A stretch of DNA of 64,000 nt from Alphaproteobacteria bacterium (lineage in GTDB: Bacteria; Pseudomonadota; Alphaproteobacteria; UBA828): assembly GCA_965214705.1 (NCBI GenBank), contig CBDCCI010000001.1, positions 576,001 to 640,000 of the forward strand. Direction: 5' to 3'. This document shows positions 1 through 12,213 of the stretch, in pieces; positions within the stretch are counted from its first letter, which is position 1, and every line of letters starts with the position of its first letter. The translations under genes were made by a program, and so were the position numbers. Under the pieces are notes generated by a model. That model had not been told where the DNA came from and made no database searches. It was given only the letters and a program-made list of their open reading frames with translations.

Positions 1-216
1 GCGGTGCTGCCGATGGCACCGCCGGTGGCGCTCGTCACCGCTCACAGCATCGGGTGGGTGTCGAGGAGGTGGCGGGCGACCTCGCGGACGCGATGGCGCT
101 CGTGCACCCTGACGGGACCGCGGGGGTCTTCGGACAGGTGCACCACGTAGAACACCGCGCCGCGGTTGAGGATGTCGTCCTGGCGATAGACATCCCCGAC
201 GTAGTCGCCGTCCTGA

Positions 217-240
217 TATTACGTTGAGCTCAACGTAATA
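217..240. repeat. Perfect 24-bp palindrome TATTACGTTGAGCTCAACGTAATA; its core arms resemble the RIT terminal motif
   Basis: Self-complementary. Arm TTACGTTGAG compares with RIT end TTATGTCGAG. Confidence 0.9.
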
Positions 241-549
241 AATTGGCCTGTATCGGTCGTGCGCAGCAGGACCGATACAGGCATTGAGCTGAGCCGCGCT
301 GCACGGCCGTAGTGCCGGGCTATGGGGAAAGTAACCGCTGGGTGGGAGCCGATTAGGCCGAAGCGGTGCAACCTGTTGGTGTCGCTGGCGGCGCCGGCAC
401 TCTGAATCTCCACTTATCAGGTTGCGACGCGGCTGTGCAGGGGCTCGCGACGATGTTTCGCCGCCGGGCAGCACGAAGCGGGCGCAGGAGCGGTCGCGGC
501 GCGGCGGCCGGGGGGACTGTTGTCGGACCTTGTCGGTTCTGACGCATCG

Positions 550-1770
550 TCACGGCGGTCGGGTATTCGTCGCCCGCATGGCTGCTTGGGGCTGCGGCTC
601 AAGAATGACGGTTTGCCGCAGCGTTGCCTCGCCGCACTGGCGGCACACGGTGATGTCGATCCCCGTCAGTCGCAGCATCATCTGCTGCGTCGTTTCCGGC
701 TCCCGCGGTTCAGGGGCAGGCTGGCCGAGCAGGTCTCGGCAGCGGGCGAGCTTGCGAGCCCGGCAGCGATTGGCGAGCAAGCCGTAGTGGCGCAGGCGGG
801 TGAAGCCGCGCGGGAGGACGTGCAGGAGGAAGCGGCGGATGAACTCGTCGACGTCGAGACGCATCACCTTGACCTTGTTGCCGTCAGCGTAGTCGCGCCA
901 ACGGAAGCGAACGTGCTCGCCGTCGAAGTCGACGAGGCGATGATTGGCGATGGCAGCCTTGTGGGTGTAGCGCCCGAGATAGGCCAGAACGTGCCCGGCG
1001 CCGGCGAACGGGGCCTTGGTGTAGACCACCCAGTCGTTCGACCGCAGCGCGGTCTTCAGACACTCGAACTCGCGGCTGTCGTCACCACCGCCGACGACCT
1101 TGAGCCGGAGTTCGCCGTCGCGGTGCGCGGCGCCGAGGAAGTCGAGATACTTGCCGCGGAAGACCTTCGAGAGCGCGACCGTGGGGAACAGGAAGCCCTT
1201 GCGCGCGGGAGTGAGCCAGCGCTCTCTGTCCGGGCTCAGACCGCCGTCGGTGACGATACAGTGGACATGGATGTGCTGTCCCAGATTCTGCCCCCAAGTG
1301 TGCAGCACCATGGTGATGCCGAGCTCGCCGCCGAGCCAGCGGGGATTGCGGCCGAACTCGAGCAGGGTCTGGGAGGCGGCCTTGAAGAGCAGCCTGTAGA
1401 TGAGCGCGGTATTGCCCTGGGCCACGGGGTTGAGCTCGTGGGGCAGGGTGAACACGACATGCCAGTAGTCGATGTCGAGCAGATCGGCGCACTGACGCTC
1501 AACCCACCTGGTCTGCGAGAGGGTCTGGCACTTGGGGCAATGACGGTTCCGGCACGAGGCGTACTGGATCGTCACCGCCCCGCAGTGATCGCATTCTGCC
1601 TTGAACCCGCCGAGCACAGCGGTGCGGCAGTTCACCAGCGCGTCGACGACCCTCTGCTGCTGGGCCGAGAGCAGATGTGTCTCGCCATAGGCGTCGCCGC
1701 GCTCGCGCAGGATGTCCGCGACCTCCAGCGCCGGCCGTGTGGCTGGCGCCGCGTGGCCGACATGAGCCAC
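550..1770 (-). CDS. IS91-family rolling-circle (Y2/HUH) transposase
   Basis: N-terminal Zn domain (CDHC..SCRNRHCPKC), HVVFTLP, HUH motif HIHVH, YLGRY tyrosine pair, C-terminal CxxC. Confidence 0.93.
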   Translation of the reverse strand: MAHVGHAAPATRPALEVADILRERGDAYGETHLLSAQQQRVVDALVNCRTAVLGGFKAECDHCGAVTIQYASCRNRHCPKCQTLSQTRWVERQCADLLDIDYWHVVFTLPHELNPVAQGNTALIYRLLFKAASQTLLEFGRNPRWLGGELGITMVLHTWGQNLGQHIHVHCIVTDGGLSPDRERWLTPARKGFLFPTVALSKVFRGKYLDFLGAAHRDGELRLKVVGGGDDSREFECLKTALRSNDWVVYTKAPFAGAGHVLAYLGRYTHKAAIANHRLVDFDGEHVRFRWRDYADGNKVKVMRLDVDEFIRRFLLHVLPRGFTRLRHYGLLANRCRARKLARCRDLLGQPAPEPREPETTQQMMLRLTGIDITVCRQCGEATLRQTVILEPQPQAAMRATNTRPP

Positions 1771-1773
1771 CGG

Positions 1774-2628
1774 TCAGGCCTGGGCAGGACGCGGAAACTC
1801 CAGCAGGTCCAGGGGCGACGGCGTGGCGGACGTCTTGTCGTGAGCAAGGTGAAGGTAGCGCATGGTCGAGCGGATTGAGGTGTGCCCGAGGCGGCGTTGG
1901 ATGACATGCAGCTCGACGCCGGCCTCGAGGAGCCCGGTGGCGTAGCAATGGCGCAGCGTGTGGATCCCGCCGGGCTTGGCGATCCCGGCTTTGTCCTTGG
2001 CTCGATCGTAAACGTGTGCTGGCCCATGGCGCGTCATCGGCCGGCCGGGAATCCGACCGGGGAACAGCCAGTGCTCGGGCCGTACCCGCTGCCAGTACTC
2101 GCGCAGCTCGTCGAGCAGCCGGGGCGAGAGCGGGACGTAGCGGTCCTTGTTGCCCTTGCCCTGATCGACGCGCAGGCACATCCGCTGTGAGTCGATATCG
2201 CTGATCTGCAACCGGCCGAGCTCGCTCGCCCGAAGCCCCGCTGCATAGGCCGTCATCAGCAAGGCGCGGTGCTTGCGGTTGATGGTGACGCTGAACAGCC
2301 GCACCAGTTCGTCTTGGTTGAGCAGTACGGGCAGGGTGGAAGGCGTCTTGGCGAAGGGCAGATAGAAGTGCGGCTCGGGCAAGCCCAGCGTGATGCGATA
2401 GAGGAAGCGGATCCCTTGGCGAGCGCTGTTGCAGCTCTGCCAAGCCAGCCCCCGCTCTTCGTGAAGAAAGATGAGGTACTCCTGGACTTCCTCCGCTGAG
2501 ATGTGCTCGGGGCTGCGACCGTAGTGAACCGCGAGCCCGGAGACCGAGTTGAGGTAGGACTTCCTGGTGTTCTCGGCGAAGCCGCGAACCGTCATGTCGT
2601 TGATCATGCGCTGGCGAAGTGCCGTCAT
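1774..2628 (-). CDS. Tyrosine recombinase (IS91-associated integrase)
   Basis: SAM-like N-terminus (LRQRMINDM), GLRASE, HTLRH, LGH..T..Y. Confidence 0.93.
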   Translation of the reverse strand: MTALRQRMINDMTVRGFAENTRKSYLNSVSGLAVHYGRSPEHISAEEVQEYLIFLHEERGLAWQSCNSARQGIRFLYRITLGLPEPHFYLPFAKTPSTLPVLLNQDELVRLFSVTINRKHRALLMTAYAAGLRASELGRLQISDIDSQRMCLRVDQGKGNKDRYVPLSPRLLDELREYWQRVRPEHWLFPGRIPGRPMTRHGPAHVYDRAKDKAGIAKPGGIHTLRHCYATGLLEAGVELHVIQRRLGHTSIRSTMRYLHLAHDKTSATPSPLDLLEFPRPAQA

Positions 2629-2937
2629 GGGGCGTCTCCCTCTGGGTTTGGTCTGTCACGAAGACACGCCCATGCTCTTGCTCGCCGGCTTGGCGGTCGA
2701 CGACCATCGATCAACGAGGGAGAAACAGGATTCGACCCTGCGCCCAGACGCTGGAGCGAACGGCCACACTCAACTTACGCGCGGCAAGGAGATCACTCTG
2801 GGCACCCGGCGGCCGAGGCGCCCCGCCGCGGAACGCGGCTCAGTTCAGTACCAGTTATGTCGAGAGAGTTTTTATGGGCAGCTGAGCCGCTCCGGTCCTG
2901 CAGGAACAAGCCGCAGGACCGGATTCGCTCAACATTT

Positions 2938-3939
2938 CTACGCGGCGCGTGCGTCGTGCAGAATGGCCATCAGACGATCAGGCGCGTCCGTAAAGGCGCC
3001 CTTTCTGATCGAGGGAGGAACTCCTCGAGCAAGGATCTCAAGCTTCCCGATGGGATCGCTACGCAGGTATATCTCCGTACTGCGGATGCTGGCGTGCCCC
3101 AGCCAGAGAGACACCTTTCGAATGTCCCTTGTGACCTCGTAGGTATGGAGGCCACACGCGTGCCTCAACACGTGCGGCGTGATCCGCTTGCTCGCCAATG
3201 ACGGCATCGTCTTGCGAGCGGTCGCGGCGTGCAGCGCCAAGCGATGGGCGAACCCATGGCGGCTTATCGGGGCGCACCTGGCATTGAGGAAGACGTGGTC
3301 GTCCTCCACGGCTGGCCGGATGGCAAGCCAGTCGCGGAGAACCGCACTGGTTTCCTTCCACAGCGGGAGCGTGCGCTTCCTTCGACCCTTCCCCGTCACC
3401 CGCACCGTATCGGCGTGCGGATGCCCGAGGTCGCCGACCATGACCCCGACCAGTTCCGAGACCCGAAGCCCGGCGCAGTAGGCCAGGTGCAGCATTGCCC
3501 GATCGCGCAAACCAGCTGCGGTTTTGGGGTCCGGTGCGTCAAGCAATGCCTGCACTTCATCGTGGTCGAGGCAGTCGATGACCGTTTGGTCATGACGCTT
3601 CATCGGGATGGCGCTGATCTGTTGAGCCACATCGAGACAGGCCGGTAAACGGTACTCGAGGTATCGGAAGAACGACTTGATCGCGGCAAGGCGCACGTTC
3701 CGCGTGGGGACCGTGTTCCCCCGGTCTCTCTCCAGATGATCGAGGAAGTCGAGAACCAGCTCGCTCGAGAGGTGCTCGATCGTGATCGCGCTGGGGCGGA
3801 TGCCGAGCCGATCTGCCGCGAAGCGGCTCAACAGCACGAAGCTGTCGGTGTAGCTGCCGACAGTATGCCGGCTGGCGTTGCGCTCCTGGGGCATATGGTG
3901 CCGTAGGAACATGCTGATATGGGGAGCTAATTCGGTCAT
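2938..3939 (-). CDS. ritC: RIT tyrosine recombinase C
   Basis: MTELAPHIS start overlapping the ritB stop, RNVRLAAIKSFF, GLRVSE, HVLRH, LGH...Y. Confidence 0.88.
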   Translation of the reverse strand: MTELAPHISMFLRHHMPQERNASRHTVGSYTDSFVLLSRFAADRLGIRPSAITIEHLSSELVLDFLDHLERDRGNTVPTRNVRLAAIKSFFRYLEYRLPACLDVAQQISAIPMKRHDQTVIDCLDHDEVQALLDAPDPKTAAGLRDRAMLHLAYCAGLRVSELVGVMVGDLGHPHADTVRVTGKGRRKRTLPLWKETSAVLRDWLAIRPAVEDDHVFLNARCAPISRHGFAHRLALHAATARKTMPSLASKRITPHVLRHACGLHTYEVTRDIRKVSLWLGHASIRSTEIYLRSDPIGKLEILARGVPPSIRKGAFTDAPDRLMAILHDARAA

Positions 3940-6096
3940 GGCCTCATCCTCTGCGTCCGTGCGTTTTCCGTCTCCCAGGCAATCTGCTTCAGCAAGGTCG
4001 GCGTCGCCTCGAGGTACCAATAGGTCGAGGTAACGGAGGAGTGGCCGAGGTAGGTCGAGAGCGCGAGCATGTGCCGGCTGACCTGGTCTCGATCGGTTGC
4101 GATTGCCTGCTCAAGCGACGTGACGGAGAAGCGATGCCTCAAGTCGTGAAGCCTGACACCCGGCTCACCGGGACCGCCGCGTAGTCCTGTGGCACGGGCC
4201 AGCTTCACGAACATCGTGGTCAAAGTGGCCTTGTTGAGGGGTTTGCCGTTCGACAGAACGAACAACGCGTCGCTCGTGCCGCCGAGCTGCTTGCGGATCT
4301 CCAGATAGGCCGCGAGTGCATCACACGAGTTCGGATGCAGCGGAACGAGTCGAGACTTCCTGAACTTGGTTTCTCGAATGACGAGCCCGTCGGAGGTGAT
4401 GTCCGAGAAGCGCAGTCCACAGACTTCGGAGCGCCGCAAACCGGTTACAGCCACCAAGCCGATCACACAGTACAAGGTGTGCGGCGTGATCGAACCGGCC
4501 GGCGGAAGGCGCAGGGCGGCTTCCATCAGCCGTTTCACCTCAGCCTCACCCAACAGGCGCGGTGTACGCCTCTGCACCTTCGCGCGGCCAAGCGCGTCTA
4601 TGTGTGGAATCTCGTGACGGTCATCTTCACTGTGCAGCCATAGGGCGAACTGCCGGAGTTGCCTCAGACGTTTCCGAGCTCTCCCGGGGGATGGCGTGTC
4701 GGAGGCAAAACGAATCATCGTTTCGGCCCGGACAAGGTTAAGGGTTGGGCAGGCTCTCTCTCGAGAGCCTGCCCAACCCTTTTGAACGAAGCCGCGGGCC
4801 ACGAGAGGCGAAGTTGAGCTATGTGGAAAGTGCGCTGATGTCAGCGTCAGGCGGCATCCACCGGCAGCAGAGTTGCGCATAAAATCGACGCTCGCGCCGG
4901 TCTTTCGGCAGGCATGCGGGCGCACGCTGCGAGGACTGAGCGGGGTGTGAGCCGAGGGCTGTCAGCCCGGCTCAAGCGGAGACAGGTTCGGTCGTGCGTC
5001 GGCGCTTTGGCGCCGTTGCGCGGGGCCGAAGCGAGCGGGCGTCTCACGGTTTCCCCCTGTGGGTCGGCGGCAGCGCCGGCGGGCCGCGCGTCGAGCGGGG
5101 CTCATGGCGGCGGCGGATTTCGCGGACGAGGCGCATGACGCCGCCGCAGTGGGGGCAGGCCACGGGCGCGGTGCCGATCTCGGGCTCTTCGTCGGGCTCG
5201 GCCTGAGCGCCGTCCACGCTTCCCTCGGGGGCGGCGCAGCCGAGGGCGCCGAGAGCCTGGCGTGCTCTCTCCAGCGTGCTGGCGCGGCAGCCGTTGGCGA
5301 GGATGCCGAAGTAGCGAATGCGGTGCATGCCGTCCGGCAGGACGTGCCTCAGGAAGCGGCGGATGAACTCGTCGGCGCTCACGGTGGCGATGCCGTAGCG
5401 CGGCTTTCTCTGCCCCGGCGCCTTGGGCTTTCGGTGGCGGAAGGAGACCGTCTCGCCGTCGAAGGAGACGATGCGGCTGTCGGAGATGGCGATCCTGTGC
5501 GTGTAGTGCGAGAGGTACCGGAAGACCTGCTCAGGCCCGCGGAAGGGCCGCTTGGCGTAGACCACCCAGTCCCTGGCCCGGGCGGCGGCAAGCGTGGCGT
5601 GGAACTCGCCGGGATTGGCGAGGTGGGCGAGGGTGCCGTGGAACTCCAGGTCCCCCCGGCCGTGGGCGCGGGCGAGCTCCTTGAGGAAGAGGCGGCGGAA
5701 CAGGCTGCCGAGGACCTTGACGGGGGCGAGGAAGGTGGTGCTCCCCGTCTTCCACTCGCCACTGTCTACGTCGAAGCCCGCGTTGGGCACGACCACGTGC
5801 AGGTGCGGGTGGAAGCGGAGCTTCTGATCCCAGGTATGGAGGACCGCGGTGCCGCCGATGCGCATGCCGCCGTGGCGGGGATCGGCGGCGATGGTGCGCA
5901 GGGTCTCGGCGACGGCCCGGAAGAGGATGTCGAACACCACCCTGCGGTTGCAGAAGGCAATGGCGGCAACCTCCTTGGGCAGGGTGAAGACCACATGGAA
6001 GTAGGGCACCGGCAGGATGTCCCCGGCGCGCTCCTCGCTCCAGAGGTTGGCGGCGAGACCCTGGCAGGTGGGGCAGTGGCGGTTGCGGCAGGAGTT

Positions 6097-6441
6097 CTTA
6101 TGAGCTCTCTCCGCAAGGCCCGGCTTCATCTACGTCAATGGCATTCGCAATCTCTCCACTCGAATCCGCGGCCGATGTCCAGGCAGAACGTCGTTTCCAC
6201 GCAGCGATCCGCCACGCTGCTCAGCTCTTATCCGGTTCGGAACTCCGGCGCTTGCCGGCTCCGTGACCCCAATACCGCATCCAAGCGGTGGTGACGTTCC
6301 GGGAGGCGGGACCCATCTGTAGAACGGTGCCAAGCGGCGACCCAACTCTTGCCCGGTCACACGCCTTGCCCGGCATCCTCCGCGGCCGCGTCCGACCACG
6401 TCGGAACCTCCTGTATTTTCCCGTTCGTTCGGCCGGTGCCC
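6097..6441 (-). ncRNA. Candidate seekRNA/bridge RNA downstream of the IS110 recombinase
   Basis: 345-nt non-coding end, conserved with 47309-47587, with hairpins and short matches to the donor junction and target. Confidence 0.65.
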
Positions 6442-7638
6442 TCAGGAGACGATGGCGCCCTCAGGCACCAGTCCTTGGGTGGCATAGCGCCACAGCGCGA
6501 TCAGCAGCTTGCGCGCGACCCCCACGATCGCCCGCTTCCTCGCTCGCCGGTCCCTCCCGCCACCGGCATCCCTGGCGACGTAGGCGTGGAACCACTTCGT
6601 GATCGCGCTTTCCGGTTGCAGCTTCAGCCAGCGCCAAGCCATCTGGATCATGTGCTTCCTGACATGCGAGGGGCCGGCCTTGCTGATGCCAAGATCGTGG
6701 TCGACATCTCCGCTCGCCCACGGCACCGACGTCAACCCGGCCCAGCTGCCCAACTCCCGGCGATTGCGGAAGTCCCGATAGAACACCTCGCCAGCCAGCA
6801 GTGTGGCGTCATTGAGGCCGATGCCATGGATGCGCGTAAGCGCCGCGATCATCGCCGTCCCGTCACGATTGGTCGCGTCCTGGGCTTTCCGGCCAGCCTT
6901 CAGCAGGGCCCTCTTCTCGGCCTCGATCATCTCGATATGCTCCTCAACCAGGCGAAGCATCCCCACCGCCCTCTCAATCTCTGCCCGCGCACGCGGCGGC
7001 AACGGCGCCCCATAGCCCGTCCGCGCGGTCGCGAGGCGTTCGAGGAAGTCCGGCTTGCGCGGCGCCAGATCGAAGATGCCGTGCAACTGCAAGAGCCCTT
7101 TGATCCGGTTGTTGACGCGGGTACGCTCGCTGATCAGCGTGTCCCTCTCGCGCAGCAGGCGCTTGGCATCCTCCTGGTCCACATCGGGCACGCGCACCCA
7201 GGACATGGCCTCCGAATCGCCTTGGTCCCATGCCTTCAGAGCCCGAACCATCCTCCTCGCGTCGATACGGTCGGTCTTTTTCTTCTTGGCGCGCCGGTTC
7301 ACCCGCAGGCTCGCCGGATCGTTCATGAAGATATCGATCTCCGCGTCACGGCGCTCGATATCGCGGGCAAGCCAGAACCCCTCGTAGCCCGCCTCGTAGG
7401 TCAGCATCACCCGAGGACGGGCGCCGAGCTCCCTCGCCACCCGTTCCCGCACCGACCCGACGAGATCCAACAGTCCCGCCGTGTCGGCAGCAGCCAGTGT
7501 GTGGATGCTGATGCTGCCACCCGAGGCATCCGGGCAATGCACGCCAACGATCCACGATTTGAGGCTGATCTCCACCGCGACATAAATCGTGCTACTACTT
7601 GCGCCTGTCAGCGCGGTCGTGTCTGGACCATCCGACAT
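6442..7638 (-). CDS. IS110-family (DEDD) recombinase/transposase
   Basis: IYVAVEIS, YEAGYEGFW, KKKTDRIDA, GIG, GLTSVPWASG, GISKAG, ARKL. Confidence 0.92.
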   Translation of the reverse strand: MSDGPDTTALTGASSSTIYVAVEISLKSWIVGVHCPDASGGSISIHTLAAADTAGLLDLVGSVRERVARELGARPRVMLTYEAGYEGFWLARDIERRDAEIDIFMNDPASLRVNRRAKKKKTDRIDARRMVRALKAWDQGDSEAMSWVRVPDVDQEDAKRLLRERDTLISERTRVNNRIKGLLQLHGIFDLAPRKPDFLERLATARTGYGAPLPPRARAEIERAVGMLRLVEEHIEMIEAEKRALLKAGRKAQDATNRDGTAMIAALTRIHGIGLNDATLLAGEVFYRDFRNRRELGSWAGLTSVPWASGDVDHDLGISKAGPSHVRKHMIQMAWRWLKLQPESAITKWFHAYVARDAGGGRDRRARKRAIVGVARKLLIALWRYATQGLVPEGAIVS

Positions 7639-7941
7639 CCGTCCACTCCGTTGTTGACGATTCCGCTCGGAGAGAAGGTGCTGGCCTTCTCTCCGAGCTT
7701 GTCTAACCGCCAGAATCGATTCGGTGCCACCGTGCTCATGGTATCTGAAGAGCGGATGCTCGCGCCCGCAGCCCTCGCAGGCGTACATGTGGCCGCCGAG
7801 CACGGCGGTGCGGCACGCCTCGATGGCGCCCATGACCTTGAGCCGGGCGGCGTCGATGCGCCCTTTGTGGCGCTCACGGAAAGCGGCGCCGGCGCGGCGG
7901 AAGATCTCCGCCACGCCCGCGCGTTCGGCCTCCACGCGCCG

Positions 7942-8820
7942 TCAGTTGCGCAACGCTGCGAAGCCTGAGATCGGGTGGTCGAGGCCCTCGAACATCTTGC
8001 CGGTGACGCGGGCGTAGTGACGGGTCGTGTTCGCGCTTCGATGGCCGAGCATGTCCCGGATCACCTCGATATCGCCGCCGCGCTCGAGGAGATGGGTCGC
8101 CGCCGAATGGCGCAGGCAATGGAAGGTGTAGCTGCGGTCGAGCTCGGCAATGTCGCGCGCCCTCCTGAAGGCGGCCTGCAAGGTCTCCGTTGCGATGGGC
8201 CTGTCGAGCGAGACGCCGTAGAAGAGCCAGTTCGTCGGACGCGGCCAGATGTTCCTGTAGTAGACGCGCAAGTAGTGGATGACGATGTCCGGCAACGGTG
8301 CCATTCTCTCGGTGCCGCCTTTGCCGGAGGGGATGTGCAGCAGCTTCTTCTCCGACAGGATGTCGCCGACCTTGATGGCCAAGGTCTCGGAGATGCGGAG
8401 CCCGCCGCCATAGCCGGTGACAATGGCAGCACGGTGGCGGAGGTCGGGTGTCGCAAGGATGAGGTGCTCGACCTCCTGCTCCGACATGTAGCGCGGCAGC
8501 TTGCCGGGCTTCTTGCGGGAGCGCAGGCCGGCGACATGGTCAGGCCAGCCGAGTGTGTCGATGTAGAGGAAGTTCAGCGCGGCGAAGGAGACGTTGGTCG
8601 TGCCCGGACTGAGCCCCTTGTCGATCCGCCCCAGGTACCACTGGCGCACCTGCTCGGCGTCGAGCTCGTCCGGCGAGGCGTCGTAGTACCTGGCCAGGTT
8701 CTTGATCTCGCAGATGTAGGCCTTGGACGTGCTCGCGGCCAGATTGGCGATGCGGAGCTGCTCCTCCATGCGCTGGCGAAGAGGGGTGACGGTGTTCGTG
8801 TCGCACGCGGTCCCGGTCAT
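7942..8820 (-). CDS. Tyrosine recombinase of element type B, copy 1
   Basis: TPLRQRM, GLRISE, HCLRH, LGH..TT..Y. Confidence 0.92.
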   Translation of the reverse strand: MTGTACDTNTVTPLRQRMEEQLRIANLAASTSKAYICEIKNLARYYDASPDELDAEQVRQWYLGRIDKGLSPGTTNVSFAALNFLYIDTLGWPDHVAGLRSRKKPGKLPRYMSEQEVEHLILATPDLRHRAAIVTGYGGGLRISETLAIKVGDILSEKKLLHIPSGKGGTERMAPLPDIVIHYLRVYYRNIWPRPTNWLFYGVSLDRPIATETLQAAFRRARDIAELDRSYTFHCLRHSAATHLLERGGDIEVIRDMLGHRSANTTRHYARVTGKMFEGLDHPISGFAALRN

Positions 8821-9165
8821 TATCGATCTCCCTGGATCGCGACGGCGCGCCGCCGGACCGATCCGGCGACGGTCCGTCGCAGGGGTCGATGCTAACCACT
8901 GGTGATCGGGAGGCTGCTGGGGATCCGCCACCCGACGGGCGGAGCGCCACTGACGCAACCGGGAAGCGAACGCACAGAACAAACGGCACCCGCGACGCCT
9001 CGGAAATGAATGAACTCTACGCCGCTAACTCCGCGTAGCGGCTTCGTTCAAAGTCCTCTCCGAGCGCCATCGCGTTATCTGCCCACGCGAGCAGCAGGCG
9101 TTCTTCGTTCTCGTACCGGCAGCCAAGATGTCGTTTGAGGGCGACGAAACGGCCAACATGCTTCT

Positions 9166-10731
9166 TCATGTGCATGGCAGATCCCCGATCCAGGGCTGCG
9201 CCACCTCGAGAAGCATCGGGCGGTCGGTCTTGGCATAGATCGCGGTGGTATCCAGCGAGCGATGCCGCAGAAGCGCGCCGATAACGTCGAGCGACACTCC
9301 GGAGCGAACCAAGTTGGTCGCTGTGGAGTGACGGAAGAGGTGCGAGCCCCGCGGTCGGACTTCGCTCATGCCGGCCCGCTTCAGAGCGGATTTGACGCGT
9401 GCCGAGACCGTTCCACTACAAGCAAAGGGCCGATGCGGTGCTTTTGCCCGAAGGAAGACCTGGTCCTCGGCGACGCGCGGACGCGCCTGCTCGATGTAGG
9501 CGAGAACGGCGTCGCCTGCATCCTGGGGAAGCGGCAATCCCACCTGCCGCCGGGACTTCCCGCACACGCGGATTATCGCGTTGTGCCAGTCGATGTCATC
9601 GAGACGTAGCCGGACGATATCTCCTGCGCGTAGGCCGAGGCGGGCGAGGAGAAGGAGGATCGCCCGATCACGCAGACCTACGGGCGTCGTGACATCGCAG
9701 CATCGGATGACCTGCTCGATGGCCTCGGCAGGAAGATATCGAGGCAGGCTGGCCAACTTCCAGACGCGGCCCCTTGGGACTGCATCGACGAGAGTCGGCG
9801 AACAGATTCCGCGAGCAGCAAGATACCGCAGATACATTTGCATGGAGGTCGCCAGCGTCTGGGCATGACCCCATGACACCCCCTCGAACCGTGCAAGCAG
9901 CGCGGCTCGGATGCGCGCAGCGTTGTAACCTTCAGGATCTTGCCCAAGTCTCGCGAGCAACGTGCTGACGTTGCGTTTGTGATCGCGGATTCTCTCAGCC
10001 CCAATGCCGCGATGTCGTCGAAGCCACTCGCCGAATCCGTCCAGCGAGGTGTCCCTCGCCGTTTCGGGCACCACCGTCCGATGGTGGAGCACGCCTCTGT
10101 CAGTGAGGTACTGCGCAAACTCGACGAAGGGACGAACGTACTGCGGGTCGTAGCGGAGACTGCCGAAGTTCCTGGAGCAGCCTGGGCAGACGCAGTCGTG
10201 GCCGAGGAACTGCTCCACCACATCGGAATCGACTTCCCGCATGGGAATGCGGGACCGATGCATCCAGAAGAGAAGGTGCCGGCACACGCCCCGCCAATAG
10301 GCGAGCGTGGCGGCAGCGTAACCGTCGATTGCGCGCCGGGCGATGAAGTCTTCCAGAAGGGTCAATCCTTCATGAAGGTCGCCGGGATGTGGGATGTGGC
10401 CCGTGTCCTCCAAGTACTGCACGAGCTTCAACGCGCCCGTCATCAAGGGGCGTGGGTACACGGTAGTCTCTTTGCGGCGCGACGGCAGCGTCCCTGCACA
10501 TCCGCATTCGTGATGACGGAAACGGCGCAACACGGCATCGTCAACCGAGACAATGGCCACGCCCTCTTGGTGCAGCCAAACGAGAAGGTGCCGCGCCGAA
10601 CGCCACAGGCTGCTGATGGTGTTCTCGGTAAAGTCGCAGCGGCGCAAATAGTCCACAAATGCTTGAAGGTGATGTTGGAACTGGTGCGGCGTCGGCCCCG
10701 GCCGAAAGACCCGCGTTGCTGTCGATGACAT
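9166..10731 (-). CDS. ritA: RIT tyrosine recombinase A (long form, about 521 aa)
   Basis: LPRYL, RDRAILLLLARLGLR, HLFRH, LRHRSLDTTAIYAK..L..VAQPW. The N-terminus carries a repeated module. Confidence 0.88.
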   Translation of the reverse strand: MSSTATRVFRPGPTPHQFQHHLQAFVDYLRRCDFTENTISSLWRSARHLLVWLHQEGVAIVSVDDAVLRRFRHHECGCAGTLPSRRKETTVYPRPLMTGALKLVQYLEDTGHIPHPGDLHEGLTLLEDFIARRAIDGYAAATLAYWRGVCRHLLFWMHRSRIPMREVDSDVVEQFLGHDCVCPGCSRNFGSLRYDPQYVRPFVEFAQYLTDRGVLHHRTVVPETARDTSLDGFGEWLRRHRGIGAERIRDHKRNVSTLLARLGQDPEGYNAARIRAALLARFEGVSWGHAQTLATSMQMYLRYLAARGICSPTLVDAVPRGRVWKLASLPRYLPAEAIEQVIRCCDVTTPVGLRDRAILLLLARLGLRAGDIVRLRLDDIDWHNAIIRVCGKSRRQVGLPLPQDAGDAVLAYIEQARPRVAEDQVFLRAKAPHRPFACSGTVSARVKSALKRAGMSEVRPRGSHLFRHSTATNLVRSGVSLDVIGALLRHRSLDTTAIYAKTDRPMLLEVAQPWIGDLPCT

Positions 10732-10990
10732 CGTCACTCTCCTCCTATCCTCAGTGGGGGAGGAGAGGCTTACATAATGTTGAGCGAATCCGGTCCTGCG
10801 GCTTGTTCCTGCAGGACCGGAGCGGCTCAGCTGCCCATAAAAACTCTCTCGACATAACTGATAGACGCGGGCTTCGTTCTCGCCCACCCGCCGGAACCCG
10901 ATGTCGCTGCTCATTGTGCTCTCCCCGTAGCGTGATGCCGGCGCGGAGAGGACTCTCTCTGCTCTCCATGCGGCTCGCCGCTCGCCCGCT

Positions 10991-11971
10991 TCACTCGGAC
11001 TCCCGGTCTGCGAGCGCGGCCGCCGTCCAGGCGGCAAGCGCGGCGGAGCCGAATGCAAGGAGATCCTCGTTGAAGTCGGCACCGCGAGGCACGATGACGG
11101 TGGCGGCGACGCGCGCGTATTCGCAGCGCCGGACGAGGCGCGCGGCAGCGCGCTCGCCTTCTTCATCGTTGTCCCTGGCGATGACGATGCGGGCGACGCC
11201 GGGCGGAGGCGCGAATGCGCCGAGGCTGCCGGCGGAGAGCGCTGCGGCGGCGACGGTGTCGGGGATGGCCGTGACGATGGACAGCACGGTCTCGATCCCC
11301 TCGCCGACGAGGAGCGAAGCTCCATCGTCGGGGTCGCCGAAACGGACGGCATGGCCGTGCACGTGCCCGAGCGCCTTGCGCGGGCGACTCACATTTGCCT
11401 TGGCGGGCCTGGTCGGGTGCAACCACGTTCGCAGCACGCCGCAGATGGCTTCGTCGGTGCCGGTGACGGCCGCGACCAGGGCCGGCAGGCGGCGCATGCC
11501 GCTATCGCCGCGGTAGAAGAGGCTGGGATGGAAGCGCAGGGCCGCGAAGTGGCAGCGCTCAATACCGCGCGTCTTGAGGTAGGCCTCGGCATGGGTGCCG
11601 TCGATGGCGCGGCAACGGCGCCACAGGCGCCGCGCCGCCTCGGTGGCGTCGTAGGCGTCGCCCGAGCCCGCGGCCGGCGCAGCCGGCCGCGCGAGGAAGG
11701 CGCGGGCCTCGTCGAGCGCCGCGCGCAGCGTCGGCGCGTTGATGCGGTGGCGGATGATGTCGAGCAGATCGCCATGCGCGCCCGTGGCTGCATCGGTGAA
11801 CTTCCCGGGCGCCCCCGGCGGCGCGAGACGGACGTAGAGAGATCGGCCGCGCCCGCCGTCGAGATCGCCCGCGACCCAGTACCGGCCCCGGCGGCGCCCG
11901 TAGGGCAGGTATCGGCGGCAGGCTTCTTCGGCGCGCTCGGCGAGTGCTGCGGCGACGGCAGCCGCGTTCAT
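10991..11971 (-). CDS. Plasmid/ICE-type toprim-domain primase-like protein
   Basis: GRYWVAGD N-domain, AEAYLKTRGI, VGEGIET, ARDNDEEG toprim motifs. Confidence 0.85.
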   Translation of the reverse strand: MNAAAVAAALAERAEEACRRYLPYGRRRGRYWVAGDLDGGRGRSLYVRLAPPGAPGKFTDAATGAHGDLLDIIRHRINAPTLRAALDEARAFLARPAAPAAGSGDAYDATEAARRLWRRCRAIDGTHAEAYLKTRGIERCHFAALRFHPSLFYRGDSGMRRLPALVAAVTGTDEAICGVLRTWLHPTRPAKANVSRPRKALGHVHGHAVRFGDPDDGASLLVGEGIETVLSIVTAIPDTVAAAALSAGSLGAFAPPPGVARIVIARDNDEEGERAAARLVRRCEYARVAATVIVPRGADFNEDLLAFGSAALAAWTAAALADRESE

Positions 11972-12173
11972 GGCGCACACTTCGGGCGGGGGCGGGAGCC
12001 GGCGAAGCCGGGACCGTCGGCGGTCATGGGGAGCATGAGAGACCTCGCTGGACGCAGCATGGGACACGGCCCGGTCCCGGCCTCGACCGGCCTCTCGCCG
12101 GCGCCGGGACGGCGGGCGGCGCGCGAAGCGCAGGCCCCGCCGTCCGGCCAGTGGCGGACTCGGATCGGGCTGC

Positions 12174-12213
12174 ACAAAGAAACCCGCCCCGCGCGGGAGG
12201 AACGCGGGGCGGG
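12174..12213 (-). terminator. Rho-independent terminator, originally just downstream of ssb
   Basis: CCCGCCCCGCG stem followed by TTTCTTT on the minus strand. Confidence 0.55.

Follow-up and report, generated by a model that had tools for sequence, protein, structure and literature searches.

A one-sided palindrome flanked by inverted hexamers as a probable end module of RIT transposons

We analyzed a stretch of 64,000 nucleotides (hereafter the window) from an Alphaproteobacteria bacterium of the lineage UBA828 (assembly GCA_965214705.1, contig CBDCCI010000001.1, positions 576,001 to 640,000), in which a transposon of the RIT kind, carrying three adjacent tyrosine recombinase genes, interrupts a gene for a 75-aa protein and is accompanied on one side by a perfect 20-bp palindrome. 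The genome (G000) consists of three contigs, C1 to C3, and the window corresponds to C2:576001-640000. In all likelihood the palindrome is a conserved, family-specific end module and a constitutive part of the RIT transposon. Comparison of copies showed that the integrated form is X-h-[A> .. ritABC .. <A]-rc(h)-[B><B]-h-Y, where A denotes the terminal arm within the long inverted repeats, B><B the family-specific 20-bp palindrome with halves resembling A, h a 6-bp hexamer found once in the empty target and rc(h) its reverse complement. The palindrome is one-sided and keeps a fixed side relative to the target hexamer, and the RIT body lies either way.

Along the plus strand, positions 213-10863 of the window read gene flank, hexamer, 20-bp palindrome, IS91-family element, inverted hexamer, RIT, hexamer and gene flank. 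An earlier note on this DNA had described the hexamers, the perfect palindrome, the IS91-like unit at 239-2848 and an inverted inner hexamer, and re-reading the window bore this out: the reverse complement of TACCAG (2849-2854) equals CTGATA at 5/6 positions. The features are listed below, with strand where assigned (ISa and ISb denote two IS91-like insertion sequence (IS) elements; ORF, open reading frame).

42-218, minus strand: C-terminal part of the interrupted 75-aa gene (aa 18-75 and stop), from tblastn of the rejoined ORF and intact paralogs
213-218: outer hexamer CTGATA on the palindrome side, the candidate crossover or target hexamer; single copy in intact paralogs
219-238: perfect 20-bp palindrome, the probable RIT end module, made of two back-to-back B arms that are 8/10 like the RIT terminal arm
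239-2848, minus strand: ISa, an IS91-family element with its own tyrosine recombinase, from Pfam and NCBIfam matches; ends taken from other copies
2849-2854: inner (middle) hexamer TACCAG, inverted relative to the outer hexamers
2855-10857: whole RIT-1 unit, bounded by 83-bp inverted repeats
2855-2937, plus strand: RIT-1 terminal inverted repeat, ritC-proximal, 83 bp
2938-4020, minus strand: ritC, 360 aa; Pfam Phage_integrase and SAM_1; Xer-like in NCBIfam, below cut-offs
3936-4735, minus strand: C-terminal part of ritB, which the nested ISb interrupts about 120 nt into the gene
about 4736-9051, minus strand: ISb, a second IS91-like element with a tyrosine recombinase; boundaries ambiguous by 3 nt
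9166-10731, minus strand: ritA, 521 aa, with a long N-terminal region; Pfam Phage_integrase at residues 332-502
10775-10857, minus strand: RIT-1 terminal inverted repeat, ritA-proximal
10858-10863: far hexamer CTGATA, a direct repeat of 213-218
10858-10914, minus strand: N-terminal part of the interrupted 75-aa gene (aa 1-19), from tblastn of the rejoined ORF

The note had also held that the palindrome is part of the insertion and not of the target gene. Removing 219-10863 restored a 75-aa ORF on the minus strand, and uninterrupted homologs do exist: five intact paralogs in G000, 92-95% identical, run without a break across a single hexamer copy at the insertion point and contain no palindrome. 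Because these five paralogs lack it, the palindrome is part of what was inserted. The same genome holds about 20 further paralogs of greater divergence, and the 75-aa protein matched no Pfam or NCBIfam family. The proposal that the palindrome is made of arms resembling the RIT end likewise held, with agreement at 8/10 positions. No other perfect palindrome with 10-bp arms exists in the whole window; first-order Markov resamples gave a mean of 0.22 such palindromes per window, so that one alone is not significant, and the 10-mer arm motif by itself was weak (12 matches vs 5.7 expected). We judge the palindrome to be real because it recurs beside RITs, and not from single-window statistics.

This recurrence was found within the same genome and in others. 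By tblastn, G000 contains at least six RIT families. The RitA proteins of RIT-1, 2, 3, 4 and 5 are 39-44% identical to each other, and each of these five families has its own palindrome and inverted hexamers at one end. Where ISa is absent, as in two copies of RIT-4, three of RIT-5 and one of RIT-2, the family's own 20-bp palindrome with inverted hexamers is found directly at one terminal repeat. The palindrome half-sites resemble the terminal arm in RIT-1, 4 and 5 and the subterminal arm in RIT-2 and 3. Similarly, in the relative G041, the RIT-3 layout is repeated, with 3/3 copies of the RIT-3 palindrome adjoining a RIT-3 end. In another genome (G039), a homolog of the same 75-aa gene carries an IS-free relative of RIT-1 (locus L009, 3687 bp, RitA 98% identical), and here a perfect 32-bp hexamer-palindrome-hexamer unit is attached directly to the ritC-side end, its palindrome identical to that of the window. 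A metagenome scan for the exact palindrome returned one locus, beside a RIT-like repeat whose genes are unchecked, which is too few for a test of solo sites.

We then asked how widely the layout occurs in other bacteria. A search with a RitA alignment yielded 545 RitA-like stretches confirmed by tblastn in the genome collection, of which 80 loci with 39-98% identity were kept, originating from Alpha-, Beta- and Gammaproteobacteria, Acidobacteriota, Gemmatimonadota and others. Inverted repeats were detected in 61 of the 80 (none in 12, and 7 were too short), and 50 loci were scorable (3.0-6.5 kb in size, with 60 nt or more of flanking sequence at each end), so that the scored units are RIT-sized and bounded by inverted repeats. 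A locus was called positive when a hexamer-plus-arm palindrome matching at 12/16 or more adjoined a RIT end. Overall, 38 of the 50 scorable external loci were positive, always at one end only (15 on the ritA side and 23 on the ritC side) and none at both ends by the detector. The same threshold was reached by 23 of 4617 control windows, and the strongest controls include at least 5 actual RIT palindromes, belonging to neighboring RITs or displaced by IS elements. About half of the external palindromes are imperfect by eye, with mismatches mostly near the center. The earlier note had viewed the palindrome as a minimal landing pad or a co-passenger and had suggested two-step integration; the direct attachment of the cognate palindrome in these 38 loci and in five families of G000 speaks against this.

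The element itself, judged from gene order, domains and repeats, is an ordinary element of the RIT kind that is now disabled by nested IS elements. Its ritA, ritB and ritC ORFs encode 521, 307 and 360 aa, lie on the same strand and all contain PF00589; the 307-aa ritB is intact only in a second copy on C1 (L001:8682-9605), where ritA and ritB overlap by 10 nt. The two 83-bp inverted repeats differ by 1 mismatch, and the ritC-proximal one contains two arms, the outer one and an inverted inner one, along with an internal imperfect hairpin. The unit at 2855-10857 is thus not the plain 3.7-kb RIT that the earlier note had taken it for: a nested 4.3-kb ISb, itself interrupted by an IS110-type element, breaks ritB. 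Since ISa also splits the middle site, the window copy is probably immobile now.

The second copy of RIT-1 (C1:4097499-4103349) is 99.9-100% identical to the first over 3706 aligned bases and is located in a paralog of the 75-aa gene; identical copies at different sites are a mark of intragenomic mobility. Within C1:4094863-4103349 the same palindrome, a copy of ISa and RIT-1 occupy the same codon of the paralogous gene, although the C1 RIT holds a different, 2.16-kb insertion with a DDE transposase. With palindrome, ISa and gene taken as reference, the RIT body points in opposite directions in the window and on C1, without any change in the side of the target on which the palindrome lies. The flipped copy is that on C1, where the palindrome is ritA-proximal, as opposed to ritC-proximal in the window and in L009. 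The hexamers are swapped as reverse complements, reading CTGATA/TACCAG/CTGATA in the window and CTGGTA/TATCAG/CTGATA on C1. Four further flipped pairs with the same flanks and palindrome side, and ritA either way, were found in other genomes (L050/L052, L045/L053, L060/L063 and L080+L083/L082). These comparisons support site-specific inversion of the RIT body, which the earlier note had raised as a possibility. Both the two orientations and the swapped hexamers would be explained by a circle with two mirror-image cores or by inversion in place between two of the three sites set out below.

We compared the three hexamers at the 38 positive loci after orienting the palindrome to the right. Position by position, far and outer hexamers are identical in 87% of cases; once reverse-complemented, the middle hexamer matches the outer in 91% and the far in 83%. 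At 19 of the 38 loci there is no mismatch among the three. Eight loci combine a middle hexamer that is the exact reverse complement of the outer one with a far hexamer that differs; the reverse pattern, with the middle matching the far and not the outer hexamer, was seen at 2. For RIT-5, the native hexamer is known from seven intact target paralogs. Its three copies share an unchanged block of middle hexamer, palindrome and outer hexamer, which is one base off native, and have a far hexamer identical or similar to the native sequence; RIT-2 on C3 follows the same carry-over pattern. Judging from these alignments, it is the palindrome-side hexamer that tends to belong to the element and appears to travel along with it. 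The suggestion that the hexamers act as crossover spacers is consistent with their single copy in the empty target and with the agreement among the three.

Taken as crossover regions, the hexamers would define three sites: S1 (X-h-A>), S2 (<A-rc(h)-B>) and S3 (<B-h-Y). Of these, S2 would be the only complete core of arm, 6 bp and arm. The four outer arms are putative recombinase-binding sites, and the palindrome would supply the second pair. Recombination of S1 with S3 would join the ends into a circle with two mirror-image cores lying back to back across the palindrome, and either core could then react with the target hexamer to give both RIT orientations with the palindrome side unchanged. 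Recombination of S1 with S2 would invert the body without moving the element. Being perfectly palindromic, the double core may fold or extrude as a hairpin mimicking one duplex core; as a single strand, the 32-bp unit is predicted to form a 14-bp stem with a 4-nt loop (z = -4.9). A hairpin version of the core, as in CTX phage attP or integron attC, is conceivable on this modeling, and we put it forward tentatively. That the far hexamer is usually native and the palindrome-side one the element's own would point to crossover at one hexamer boundary, strand-biased and completed by replication, in the manner of Tn554 and SE elements. The most far-reaching proposal is that RITs move via a folded or cruciform hairpin, that one strand exchange followed by replication carries the hexamer, and that an IS91 lineage with an integron-integrase-like recombinase homes into that core; taken as a whole, we consider it speculative and rather doubtful. 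In the window, RIT-1 would have entered codon 19 of the 75-aa gene, ISa would then have inserted at the boundary of B arm and hexamer in S2, and ISb would have broken ritB.

The insertion of ISa is of interest in its own right. The element encodes a transposase (550-1770) and a tyrosine recombinase (1774-2628), with the domains Y2_Tnp (PF04986, 6e-59), Zn_Tnp_IS91 (PF14319, 4e-28) and Phage_integrase. Its transposase matches the NCBIfam model transpos_IS91 (NF033538) with 432 bits vs a cut-off of 125, and the best match of its recombinase is an integron-integrase model, below cut-off. We fixed its ends by aligning 11 left-end and 13 right-end copies in G000. Copies lie at 239-2848 of the window and at C1:1526488, C1:1594569, C1:4094883, C2:498017, C3:317033, C3:1787620 and other positions; between the copy in the window and that on C1 there are 3 differences in 2610 positions. 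No target duplication accompanies the insertions. In 9/11 copies the transposase-distal end adjoins a RIT-type arm ending in ..[AG]TA[AG], which differs from the tetranucleotide target of IS91. Of 12 copies, nine have a Rit gene no more than 5.3 kb away, two are at a RIT-6-type palindrome without a RIT nearby, and one divergent copy has neither. In four RIT families of G000 the insertion is always at the boundary of arm and middle hexamer in S2, on the side of the palindrome arm in RIT-1 and RIT-2 and of the RIT arm in RIT-3 and RIT-6. Relatives of ISa use the same boundary in a Paracoccaceae metagenome-assembled genome (L047:2262-4870) and in Bradyrhizobium (L069:2162-4813). From this placement, ISa is a later arrival than the RIT and splits what would be its only complete core. 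Exact insertion of an IS91-like element into the RIT core, in at least three genera, is a separate target specificity and apparently undescribed; the literature passages found on IS91, tyrosine recombinases and palindromes contained no match to such homing. An 8-mer common to the ISa ends and the RIT-1 repeat was tried as a general RIT feature and ruled out, being present in 3 of 61 loci.

The second element, ISb, encodes a recombinase at 7942-8982, and an IS110-type insertion of about 1650 bp (about 6096-7745) interrupts its transposase. The extents of both match joints in public contigs (4732>9049 and 6095>7746). ISb is heavily amplified in G000, with more than 100 near-identical copies by tblastn, many of them interrupted; at least one (C3, near 1787620) occupies the RIT core boundary that ISa uses.

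We weighed three other origins for the palindrome. In the landing-pad or co-passenger reading, hexamer-palindrome-hexamer would be a miniature element that inserts alone, with a RIT docking beside it in a second step. Locus L043, with palindromes on both sides, is what one would expect if a RIT with its own copy docked beside an existing palindrome. At L057 a perfect 32-bp palindrome lies 580 bp from the RIT with no obvious element beside it, and no Rit gene lies closer than 390 kb to either of two RIT-6-type palindromes in G000 (C1:1986275 and C1:3503358). The latter two, however, adjoin ISa and ISb in an IS-rich, rearranged genome, and a 26-bp unit would be unable to form a recombination circle. 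The sequence of the palindrome follows the RIT family and not the target, and attachment to a RIT is direct in the 38 external loci. Outside G000 the identical palindrome was seen beside a RIT in G039 and at the single metagenome match next to a RIT-like repeat (genes there unchecked), and all three palindrome copies of G041 adjoin a RIT-3 end. We therefore regard this reading as improbable in general, and L043 and the two RIT-less palindromes leave a landing-pad role open as a rare event.

The palindrome could instead be an end, a footprint or a duplicated target of the IS91-like element, since 8 of the 9 palindromes of window type in G000 touch ISa and that of the window adjoins an ISa end. 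Yet ISa copies adjoin five different arm sequences, and RITs free of ISa carry the palindrome too (C1:4094759, RIT-4, RIT-5, L009, G041 and the 38 external loci). In RIT-3, RIT-6, L047 and L069 the IS is located on the other side of the hexamer, beside the RIT arm. We attach next to no weight to an IS91 origin. A palindromic target sequence present before insertion was also considered and is ruled out by the intact paralogs. RIT recombinases fall within a wider group of tyrosine recombinases that includes the hairpin-forming telomere resolvases. Such kinship would fit a palindrome made anew at each insertion by hairpin formation and replication, in the manner of a telomere resolvase or a P-nucleotide scar, and not inherited; the inverted duplication of the hexamer on both sides is also what replication of a hairpin end would leave. 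Against it, the arms differ from the RIT-1 terminal arm (8/10 positions agree), so they were not copied from it, about half of the external palindromes are imperfect where a replicated hairpin would be perfect, and the same palindrome is unchanged in independent insertions of one family. De novo formation thus seems very improbable.

Several observations weigh against the palindrome as a regular RIT end module, or against parts of the scheme built on it. Twelve of the 50 scorable external loci fail the detector. At L047 and L069 the IS91-like element lies between RIT and palindrome, at L038 such an element stands at the RIT end, with a flank like that of L069 and a contig too short to show the palindrome, and at L017 the palindrome is, by eye, inside the detected repeat. 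The palindrome is present at L057 with a non-complementary middle hexamer. At L043 (85-141 and 3469-3525) palindrome and hexamers occur on both sides in direct order, the sole case among the 50. L010, a RIT-1 with 97% RitA identity, has no palindrome on its whole 4127-bp contig; this RIT is flanked by inverted N-terminal halves of two paralogs of the 75-aa gene with inverted hexamers, and it looks as if two RIT copies had recombined or the assembly had joined separate pieces. The remaining five misses show nothing clear or have doubtful inverted repeats. Within G000, the terminal arm of RIT-2 is unlike its own palindrome and only the subterminal arm resembles it. Among the hexamers, far equals outer with a foreign middle at 4 loci, and 5 loci are mixed with no simple class. 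The window copy is uninformative on carry-over, its far and outer hexamers both being native, and strand-biased exchange as we infer it draws on small numbers and needs inversion as an extra step. The duplex two-core and hairpin models lead to the same integrated product and are inseparable by sequence. No circle or inversion joints were seen in assembled contigs of public runs, which as contigs only are uninformative on absence. A 212>10858 contig joint is the form of an intact paralog and no proof of excision, and terminal overlaps, as a test for circular contigs, were found in 0/20 short RIT contigs. The hexamer, inverted hexamer, palindrome and hexamer layout, its one-sidedness and the flipping are absent from the RIT literature passages covered, which do not include Ricker et al. 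2013, a paper that may already describe the layout.

Further observations concern the surroundings. Near-identical DNA is found in public runs, some labelled as metagenomes (sponge, coral and marine) and others as two coded organisms; all of it is in contigs and so is no evidence of expression or intermediates. The neighbor of the target gene (10991-12175, minus strand) encodes a protein with DUF7146 and Toprim, typical of conjugative-element regions, and RIT-5 targets a different multi-copy gene family from that type of region. The 75-aa gene family has a second hotspot at codon 45, occupied by RIT-2 with its own palindrome (C1:4090963-4094862 and C3:316878-325166), and the C1 paralog thus holds two RITs 100 bp apart. 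At C1:1589800-1593790, the flanks of RIT-6 are mutual inverted repeats for more than 160 bp past the element, that is, an inverted duplication of the target gene.

RITs are widespread, and their transposition by three recombinases is unexplained. The layout offers a concrete, testable model, with probable crossover hexamers, a second pair of binding arms and an invertible body, and it would explain why RITs strike the same codon of paralogous genes. The end module appears to be standard yet poorly described. If homing of ISa holds true, this IS91 lineage would be a transposon of a transposon's recombination site.

In gene content the element resembles the RITs of Cupriavidus metallidurans CH34 and pHG1, which passages of PMC3414803 describe as having three adjacent Xer-like tyrosine recombinase genes in the order long, short and medium, about 3.7 kb when intact, with long terminal inverted repeats and several identical copies per genome; unlike these, the window copy is broken by nested IS elements. 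The same passages mention an inverted repeat, overlapped by a palindrome, on the flanks of ritA and ritC and judge it unconvincing. An excerpt of PMC5737581 speculates on hairpin intermediates from palindromic ends, one of PMC8138268 places RitA, RitB and RitC among the Xer-like simple recombinases, and one of PMC10214605 lists RIT movement as untested. The part of PMC10214605 on Tn554 and SEs describes 6 bp carried over from the donor site. Those elements are similar in having several tyrosine recombinases, 6 bp carried to the new site and a target-sequence preference, as far as that part goes. In contrast, RITs have long inverted repeats and a terminal palindrome and lack the partners Tfp, Srap and TnpC, and carry-over in RITs is deduced from static copies and not from observed intermediates.

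A Xer/dif-type core consists of two inverted arms of about 10 bp around a 6-bp center, to which Xer-like recombinases bind. S2 shows such an arrangement, which would recur at the putative circle junction; the RIT recombinases are Xer-like below NCBIfam cut-offs. CTX phage attP(+) and integron attC are folded single-stranded hairpins used by Xer and IntI recombinases. As in those sites, two inverted half-regions of the RIT end could pair into a stem of arm, spacer and arm, and an inverted core copy stands beside one junction, as after one strand exchange and replication. Unlike them, the RIT stems, predicted from sequence, would be perfect without a loop spacer, and the element encodes three recombinases of its own. 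An upstream tyrosine recombinase gene like that of ISa has been noted for some members of the IS91 family, which are rolling-circle elements with a HUH-Y2 transposase. ISa shares with that family the Y2_Tnp and zinc-binding domains, the lack of target duplication and a hairpin near the end downstream of the transposase gene. In contrast to IS91 with its tetranucleotide targets, ISa inserts at the boundary of arm and hexamer in RIT cores.

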